Shown here: positions 24,286-24,964 of the stretch, one piece after another
Layout: each line of letters opens with the position of its first letter
How positions within the stretch are numbered: the stretch's first letter is position 1
From: Saccostrea cucullata
Taxonomy: Eukaryota
Length of the DNA stretch: 64,000 nucleotides
Direction of reading: 5' to 3'
Assembly: GCF_032062105.1 (NCBI RefSeq)
Contig: NW_026920570.1
Coordinates: forward strand, 1 to 64,000
Translations under genes and position numbers: made by a program
Notes under the pieces: model-generated
Told to the model about the DNA's origin: nothing
The model's input: the letters and a program-made list of their open reading frames with translations, nothing else
Database searches by the model: none

Positions 24286-24964
24286 TTATTCACATCTTGA
24301 GTAACTCACATACTTCAAGAACTTTTTCTTTAAAGCTGCTCTAGCTTCAATGACTTCAGGTTTCTTCCAAGCTCCTATCTCCCATCCTATCCAATTTCTG
24401 GGCTCCAATTCTTTGTTTCTCTCCTCAGGTTTCAGAACTCCATATTCTTCATAGTCACCTCCTTGCTTGTAAAACATACTTTCTAATTCTGGGGTACTGT
24501 AAGACATAGCAAATCTGGCAGTCATATGAACTCTACACATATCCAGTCCTCCTACGGGTTCCTTCATTTGAATGAATCCCCTGATTTGATGCAGTTCTCC
24601 TGTCCAGGGATGCCTTTCCTTTTGTAAAATCAAATACTGGAAACCGAAGAAGAAATCATCTTCGTTGCTCAGAAACATGTCTATATCTGCTTCTTCTTTG
24701 GGCTCTGAAATGATGAAAGTCCAATTAATGGCTATCCTGTAACATCTGTCTGGAAATTTAGGATCCTTCACAGGCTCATGCAGGGGTAAATATTCAAATC
24801 CAGTGTTTTTCCATTCTTCTTTGTTGAGGAGCTTCGTGATCCCCATCCATAGGTTCCGTCATTCTCTTTTCTAATAAGCCAAATGTATCTTTATCCATCT
24901 CCATGTCTTCTTCTTCTAATATTCTTGGAATTCGCTGGCCAAACTGTCGTTTACTTAACCACAT
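24286..24964 (-). CDS. CRESS-DNA-virus Rep HUH-domain-like protein, catalytic motifs degenerate, no helicase
   Basis: 186-aa ORF 24286-24846: NWTFIISEP (motif I-like), YLILQKER..TGELHQIRGFIQMKEP (motif II-like), STPELESMFYKQGGDYEEYG (motif III-like); likely true ATG at 24964 after TATA ~24995, joined by one frameshift. Confidence 0.6.

Follow-up and report, generated by a model that had tools for sequence, protein, structure and literature searches.

By analogy, the closest described precedent for the gene reported here is the group of avipoxvirus proteins apvRep-1, -3 and -4, rather than the origin-binding domains of polyomavirus large T (LT) and papillomavirus E1. In the accessible part of the avipoxvirus report, these are endonuclease-only proteins that have lost the HUH motif and the catalytic tyrosine and are under purifying selection, with a dN/dS of 0.23 for apvRep-1, and both regulation and dominant-negative defence have already been proposed as their roles (PMC10193959). 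The same partial source describes HHV-6 U94 as another Rep that a dsDNA virus acquired, whose endonuclease motifs are inactive and whose functions were co-opted, as seems to be the case here; unlike the present gene, U94 derives from a parvovirus and retains its helicase (PMC10193959). HUH or Rep genes are likewise carried by other mid-sized dsDNA viruses, such as Mriyaviruses, Mriyavirus-like PLVs and adomaviruses (CressRep), but in the available excerpts these are described as working replication initiators and not as dead accessory domains in a pPolB-encoding Polinton (10.64898/2026.06.19.733378; PMC11071296).

No report of a dead Rep domain in Polintons was found in the literature searched, which consisted mostly of non-subscription papers, and the accessible parts of PMC8502044, PMC10748475, PMC11296320 and 10.64898/2026.06.19.733378 contain no description of one. 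Among the proteins listed in the available part of PMC11071296, all 22 'CressRep' labels belong to adomaviruses or parvoviruses; an adintovirus dead-Rep case is possible in the supplements of that paper. Nematode Polintons carrying a HUH domain were considered as a candidate and set aside, as the term 'HUH' does not occur in the part of PMC10748475 that was available. The Polinton case is apparently unreported so far.

The gene lies on the minus strand, at positions 24286–24964, of a 64,000-nt stretch of Saccostrea cucullata DNA (the window). Like the apvReps, as far as these are described in the accessible part of PMC10193959, it is a cressdnavirus Rep captured by a dsDNA virus, reduced to the endonuclease domain, devoid of the HUH motif and the Tyr, present in several copies per genome and under purifying selection. 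Unlike them, its recipient is an integrating Polinton rather than a cytoplasmic poxvirus, and it is an optional gene occurring as tandem paralogues from one capture, with added termini (a myristoylation-type start and a basic tail). The sequence-only reading of this stretch had suggested that the gene could be an independent case of an inactivated HUH domain put to use by a dsDNA virus. As a dsDNA virus that retains only the inactivated endonuclease domain of an ssDNA-virus Rep, the case appears to be independent, but it is not of a new kind given the avipoxvirus precedent (PMC10193959, seen in part); new beyond the known phenomenon are the tandem paralogues, the divergent targeting ends and the remodelled, frozen cleft. 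The avipoxvirus outcome is repeated in an unrelated integrating virus, which suggests that a HUH fold without catalysis can serve some non-enzymatic purpose again and again.

The carrier, as had been proposed, has the features of a Polinton: pPolB, an rve integrase (interrupted here), an A32 ATPase and terminal inverted repeats, including I4. Its approximate extent is 29.8 kb (19943–49737), with AGTAGT-type ends that were read from the sequence. Encoded on the minus strand are the protein-primed polymerase pPolB (45087–49271; PF03175, E = 1.4e-57), the A32-like packaging ATPase (43761–44597; Pox_A32, E = 6e-6) and the integrase in pieces (34852–41449), within which an LTR retroelement is inserted (35352–41107). 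Upstream of the Rep-derived gene are a cysteine protease-like gene (28147–28650) and a putative major capsid gene (28650–30071), both on the minus strand and labelled from motifs, size and position; neither had a significant match in the libraries searched. The downstream neighbor (23695–24198, minus strand) has a weak match to DarG (E = 0.002) and is taken by us, partly from its motifs, to be macrodomain-like. Other accessory genes of the element include those for a BIR-RING protein and a PP1-binding-like protein.

The copy in the window belongs to the paralogue that we call A and is damaged. The sequence-only reading had treated 24286–24964 (679 nt; native start codon at 24964, stop at 24286) as one protein with a native Polinton promoter. 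When a natural unbroken copy is compared by tblastn, its matches fall in two frames, the native N-terminus at 24964–24809 and the domain at 24795–24289, with the frame break at 24795–24809 (minus strand). The entire HUH-fold domain nevertheless lies within one 186-aa frame (P0001), which begins with an ATG at 24846. Unbroken family copies are mostly 229–234 aa. The core promoter (24965–25007, minus strand) retains its TATA box (24994–24999), but the TCAGT-type initiator of the family is absent. Of 37 A contexts examined, 29 contain both elements, and in 27 of these the initiator lies 31 nt past the TATA box. In addition, a 2.9-kb secondary insertion (25008–27883) parts the core promoter from its upstream block. 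The displaced upstream half of that block (27884–28010, minus strand; repeat family D13, with the TGACGTCA site) adjoins gene A in copies without the insertion. Given the frameshift, the missing initiator and the split promoter, the window copy is probably a decayed family member, and evidence for function therefore comes from the family and not from this copy. The insertion has perfect 13-bp terminal inverted repeats, contains a fragment of a multicopy host repeat that we take, by reading alone, to be LINE-like, and is probably a non-autonomous DNA transposon.

Sequence comparison identifies the gene as a homologue of the CRESS-virus Rep endonuclease domain; the motifs quoted in the sequence-only reading are present on the minus strand and align to CRESS Reps as it claimed. 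A family profile built from 13 sequences gave nine matches among 1.84 billion proteins, three within the family and six outside it, and all six of the latter carry Viral_Rep above the cut-off (E = 2.8e-6 to 5.6e-4). P0001 alone had no Viral_Rep match in the domain search and, as in all direct PDB sequence searches, no significant match to a PDB sequence. Paralogue B matched Viral_Rep (PF02407) with E = 1.9e-4 and 2.5e-4, under the curated cut-off, and of two A relatives one gave E = 0.016 and the other no match. In the ESM Atlas both paralogues lie nearest to Cressdnaviricota Rep clusters (score 0.94, counted as one source of evidence). The proposed check by Foldseek against HUH structures was carried out with an AlphaFold model (A2, pLDDT 83), which leans to the HUH fold because 110 Reps sit in its alignment: the fold is HUH-like and its best match is PCV2 Rep (Foldseek E = 2.5e-6; Z 14.6, rmsd 2.1 over 99 residues). 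A single-sequence model was uninformative (pLDDT 44.5). Profile-profile comparison was discarded as homology evidence, being circular since A2 contains A and B.

The HUH-fold domain spans 24436–24738 (minus strand; P0001 residues 37–137, net charge −8). Just past an Arg-Asn-x-x-Leu linker the proteins cease to resemble Reps; a similar linker motif precedes the oligomerisation domain at nearly the same offset in 34 of 99 Reps. In A, a basic helical C-terminal tail (24289–24396, minus strand), not present in B, stands after the linker in place of the oligomerisation and helicase domains. Both domains are absent from the ORFs, which end shortly after the linker, and no longer form was found (a weak test); in the window the stop at 24286 is followed by the macrodomain-like gene, in line with the earlier statement that no SF3 helicase follows. 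The gene thus resembles circovirus and nanovirus Reps (PF02407; PDB 5xor, 6wdz and 6h8o) in homology, motif spacing, predicted fold, metal-site Glu and linker motif. It differs from them in that Tyr, Lys and the HUQ Gln are replaced, the oligomerisation and SF3 helicase domains are missing, and neither a stem-loop origin nor a capsid gene lies beside it. From its sequence it would be placed neither among active CRESS Reps nor among LT/E1 domains.

The residues that serve as metal ligands, catalytic Tyr and general-base Lys in Reps have been described in the parts available of PMC8780604 (section 3.2.1) and 10.1101/2020.09.01.278671. All 110 Reps of a reference set have the metal-site Glu, His and Gln, while 109 have the Tyr and 108 have the Lys. 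We compared these with 61 unbroken cores of the family, 41 of A and 20 of B, which remained of 66 and 54 distinct cores after thinning at 98.5% identity, leaving out broken or partial copies and two rows that looked frameshifted. Motif III (24463–24474, minus strand) aligns to CRESS Reps without a gap and places Phe125 of P0001 at the catalytic Tyr and Gln128 at the Lys, the two replacements already noted from the letters. The Phe is present in 61/61 copies and the Gln in 60/61, with Leu in the remaining one, and the HUQ Gln has become Arg in every copy. Two features go beyond the earlier observations, the second paralogue B and a broken motif II. The latter reads Gln-Ile-Arg in A (Gln87-Ile-Arg89 instead of His-Leu-Gln in P0001) and His-Val-Arg in B, versus His-x-Gln in 110/110 Reps; its His is replaced by Gln or Lys in 41/41 A copies and retained in 20/20 B copies. 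At the former metal site (24580–24618, minus strand) Glu77 is kept in P0001 and in 59 of the 61 copies. The motif I remnant (24703–24723, minus strand) retains its Trp and Phe; the Asn-Asn pair of this motif is gone from all 61 copies, and its Thr persists in 15/41 A and 0/20 B copies. From these replacements, catalysis is judged to be lost in both paralogues, and as the losses are common to A and B they predate the duplication.

Searches of the host genome (1.17 Gb) gave at least 150 loci for A (150 scored of 405 candidates) and at least 150 for B (150 scored of 431), cross-hits included. The usual gene order is protease-A-B-macrodomain, and A-only, B-only and chimeric forms occur too. Another element gene is present in 115 of the 117 gene-bearing loci fetched (overlapping loci counted separately), so that the gene does not represent a separate CRESS insertion; neither a stem-loop nonanucleotide nor a CRESS-virus capsid gene was found beside it. 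The homologues are thus dead and reside in Polintons, which agrees with the proposal of capture by a Polinton, lost catalysis and domestication. Domestication is supported by the many copies, by their constant place among the Polinton genes and by the purifying selection on them. Twenty protease loci, hand-picked for their absence from the A and B lists and therefore not a frequency estimate, comprised 12 in which the protease leads directly to the macrodomain gene, five with remnants and three without a downstream element gene; the 12 show the Rep-derived gene to be dispensable.

Each paralogue has its own TATA-initiator promoter with 31-nt spacing. The first ATG of B lies between the TATA box and the initiator, and translation should therefore start at the second ATG, downstream of the initiator. 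Of the 45 distinct 5' contexts, 42 encode M-G-x-x-x-S-K from that ATG onward, which we take to be an N-myristoylation pattern; judging from this start, B is probably membrane-anchored. In four RNA runs, 0.18–0.24 of the words were present, a word share alone that carries no weight for expression. Chimeric A/B genes (L088, L072, L109 and L111) are joined in the conserved C-terminal segment, and in L106–L111 the variable helix and the specificity strand take a separate variant form. At another locus (L119, G000:C154:38000-47900) the accessory region is inverted-duplicated, with two broken B copies head to head.

Selection was analyzed on unbroken cores. The GY codon model (ML) gave an omega of 0.354 for A, 0.335 for B, 0.133 for the protease and 0.253 for the macrodomain gene, with omega = 1 rejected in each case (2dlnL 69.7, 36.9, 90.7 and 70.8, respectively), although recombination between copies violates the tree model behind these values. 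Pairwise counting with a transition correction (kappa 2–4, four rows dropped) yielded 0.37–0.45 for A-A, with intervals below 1, 0.26–0.38 for A-B, and 0.59–0.73 for B-B, with intervals that include 1. Over all counting estimates, A-B omega is 0.13–0.38, despite deep synonymous divergence. The A-B pS is 0.36–0.43 in the C-terminal part versus 0.59–0.95 elsewhere, and as A/B chimeras exist, recombination may inflate the conservation of the C-terminal part. These sequence comparisons show moderate purifying selection on A and B, weaker for B by counting; a search for homologues under purifying selection in other Polintons had been suggested, and within this host genome they are found at an ML omega of about 0.35.

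Conservation is unevenly distributed over the domain. Positions at least 95% invariant across both paralogues make up 18 of 25 in residues 71–95 and 17 of 23 in residues 114–136, but 1 of 18 in residues 96–113, which cover the first half of the ssDNA-specificity strand. Several of the fixed residues differ from those of Reps, such as Gln75 (61/61 copies, versus Gly in 106/110 Reps) and the nearly invariant His86 (Pro in 104 of 110 Reps). The net charge of the A domain is −3 to −11 (33/41 at −6 or lower), that of B −1 to +5 and that of the 110 Reps −3 to +7. The variable specificity strand and the acidic A domain make DNA binding by the A/B domain appear doubtful.

A captured CRESS origin was sought in AAGTATTAC, which some copies have approximately 120 nt before the start of A, and was rejected as a working origin. 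Of 47 upstream contexts, 35 have an extra T and seven match; no hairpin forms at the site (−2.2 and −1.4 kcal/mol), and the pattern occurs 13 times in the window versus 11.4 expected. It is possibly a vestige of a CRESS origin.

Homologues outside the family were found in none of the viral contigs, metagenome contigs, plasmids or longer proteins searched, collections that hold few animal genomes; four protein matches and P0006 belong to this Polinton gene family. In a quick tree (112 rows, 97 columns; no apvRep or labelled krikovirus included), A and B together form a long branch with no supported sister. Two other loci of the host genome, L121 (G000:C1763:118979-122224) and L122 (G000:C21072:974-4219), are decayed endogenous CRESS viruses in which a Rep (Viral_Rep, approximately 59 bits), fragments of a helicase and a capsid-like ORF can be recognised. 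Upstream, L122 apparently contains the capsid-like sequence a second time, as would be expected if the genome had inserted in tandem. The L121 Rep is 38–42% identical to the environmental Reps P0009, P0013, P0016 and P0018, and close to these four is P0021, a Rep whose name comes from a bivalve assembly.

Taken together, these results show that an ancestor of the Polinton family acquired a circovirus-like Rep gene from its 5' end as far as the linker that precedes the oligomerisation domain, and that the captured domain lost the Tyr, the Lys and the HUQ Gln before being duplicated into the tandem paralogues A and B, an order that the shared losses indicate. The gene is also a record of past co-infection of the same cells by Polintons and CRESS viruses. 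At the sequence level, purifying selection has kept A and B, which are accessory and optional, occupy the slot protease-[A]-[B]-macrodomain and each have a TATA-initiator promoter. Most likely they would act in the active phase of the element as non-enzymatic binding modules, B probably at a membrane through N-myristoylation and A probably through its basic tail.

As to what is bound, our tentative reading, to which we give somewhat less than an even chance, is that the old active-site face has been remodelled for a new partner, likely a protein, in the modulation of the host. The active-site face is frozen while the strand that reads ssDNA drifts, and therefore what A and B bind is probably a protein, of the host or of a virus, and not an origin sequence. 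The neighboring genes, of PP1-binding, BIR-RING and macrodomain-like types, are of the kinds that host modulators belong to and were counted in favor of this reading. Counted against it were that Arg89, Lys76 and His86 could still bind phosphate, and that the Tyr to Phe replacement is also the laboratory change that traps ssDNA.

The latter observation bears on a different role, that of a decoy, in which the dead domain would bind the origin ssDNA or the Rep of co-infecting circovirus-like viruses and block their rolling-circle replication. The decayed CRESS insertions L121 and L122, with their Rep and capsid-like ORF, indicate that both kinds of virus shared cells. Polintons integrate and hence reach the nucleus, so that the cytoplasmic objection raised to a decoy role of the apvReps falls away here. 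According to the parts available of the respective reports, Tyr to Phe, invariant in A and B, traps pre-cleavage PCV2 Rep-ssDNA complexes (10.1101/2020.09.01.278671) and truncated geminivirus Reps can be dominant negatives (PMC4148390); the maize streak virus construct, however, retained residues 1–219, far beyond the endonuclease domain. The Polinton proteins have no oligomerisation domain, the Asn-Asn of motif I is lost and the sDBM His is replaced (by Arg, Asn, Asp or Glu in A and by Cys in B), while A is acidic and B looks myristoylated. The dominant-negative decoy put forward in the sequence-only reading is thus not supported so far, and we consider it unlikely. The same doubtful standing is given to its extension, in which the Polinton would have made the initiator of a rival ssDNA virus into a two-part weapon, a non-cutting trap that carries the laboratory Tyr to Phe change and comes in soluble and membrane-anchored forms. 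If true, endogenous Polinton copies could give the host inherited protection from circovirus-like viruses, and viruses would repeatedly have turned dead Rep domains into a defence against other viruses, in poxviruses as well as Polintons.

The origin-binding domains of LT and E1 are essential, form part of proteins with an SF3 helicase and recognise origins in dsDNA. They share with the Polinton domain a non-catalytic HUH fold in a dsDNA virus, and the A2 model matches those of SV40 (Z 9.3) and papillomavirus in a Z range of 8–9; unlike them, the Polinton domain is free-standing and optional and, by the model, far closer to CRESS Reps (Z 14). A comparable role on the DNA of the Polinton itself, at its terminal repeats or promoter module, could draw on the repeated terminal units and repeated promoter modules of the element, and the basic tail of A could be a nuclear signal or a DNA clamp. 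Such a role, also suggested beforehand, fits poorly because the gene is dispensable (12/20 hand-picked loci lack it), no helicase is present and the A domain is more acidic than that of any of the 110 Reps; moreover, the nonanucleotide-like site upstream is conserved in 7/47 contexts only, with no hairpin. We regard it as quite improbable.

That the gene is a passenger, a piece of Rep that does little or nothing after its capture and is copied with the element and homogenised by recombination, has only a slim chance of being correct. It would account for the optional presence of the gene, for the broken state of the window copy and many others, for counting estimates of B that include 1 and for the lack of homologues outside the family in the collections searched. 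Yet ML rejects omega = 1 for both paralogues, A-B omega stays low despite the deep synonymous divergence, each paralogue keeps its own promoter at the 31-nt spacing, and the new residues are fixed in both. A still-active nuclease that uses Tyr126, invariant in 61/61 copies and next to the lost Tyr, with a rearranged metal site (Glu77, the motif II His of B and the nearly invariant His86) is very improbable, as the residue opposite Tyr126 in a gap-free alignment is Cys in 109/110 Reps, the Gln ligand is Arg in every copy and the general-base Lys is gone (roles as in PMC8780604).

Returning to the non-enzymatic binding module, a single genome provides more than 50 natural variants of each paralogue, together with gene-less haplotypes and A/B chimeras. 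The variants show selection that keeps the old active-site face and releases the DNA-specificity strand; as they map the kept and released surfaces, the question of apvRep function becomes testable with small soluble proteins.

Several further observations concern the element and its surroundings. Polinton/Maverick insertions are flanked by a 6-bp target-site duplication. The ends of the window element (approximately 19943 and 49737) begin with AGTAGT, and with the ends as read from the sequence no such duplication is seen, as the 6-bp flanks differ; the element may therefore be a recombinant of two insertions. A terminator-plus-promoter module, consisting of the TGACGTCA site, the ACGTAGGT and TTTTGCACACG boxes and a TATA box, is repeated before several genes (20172–20345, 21206–21378, 27925–28100, 33554–33637 and 49300–49420) and is a likely hot spot of accessory-gene shuffling. 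At 21433–21995 two ORFs of 139 and 167 aa overlap on the same strand but use different frames; other copies conserve both of them, and the second contains the PP1-binding region (PF10488, E = 2e-5). The BIR-RING inhibitor-of-apoptosis gene (44450–44983) overlaps the start of the ATPase ORF. A small basic Gly/Arg-rich gene beside the capsid gene (30144–30914) has at least two very different alleles, with approximately 35% identity between the window copy and L028/L029 in otherwise similar elements. The LTR retroelement that interrupts the integrase (35352–41107) and a second one at approximately 52140–57017 have near-identical or identical terminal repeats, from which both are judged to be recent insertions. 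Outside the Polinton, a host-side inverted-repeat element with 257-nt arms (92%) occupies 58802–61033.
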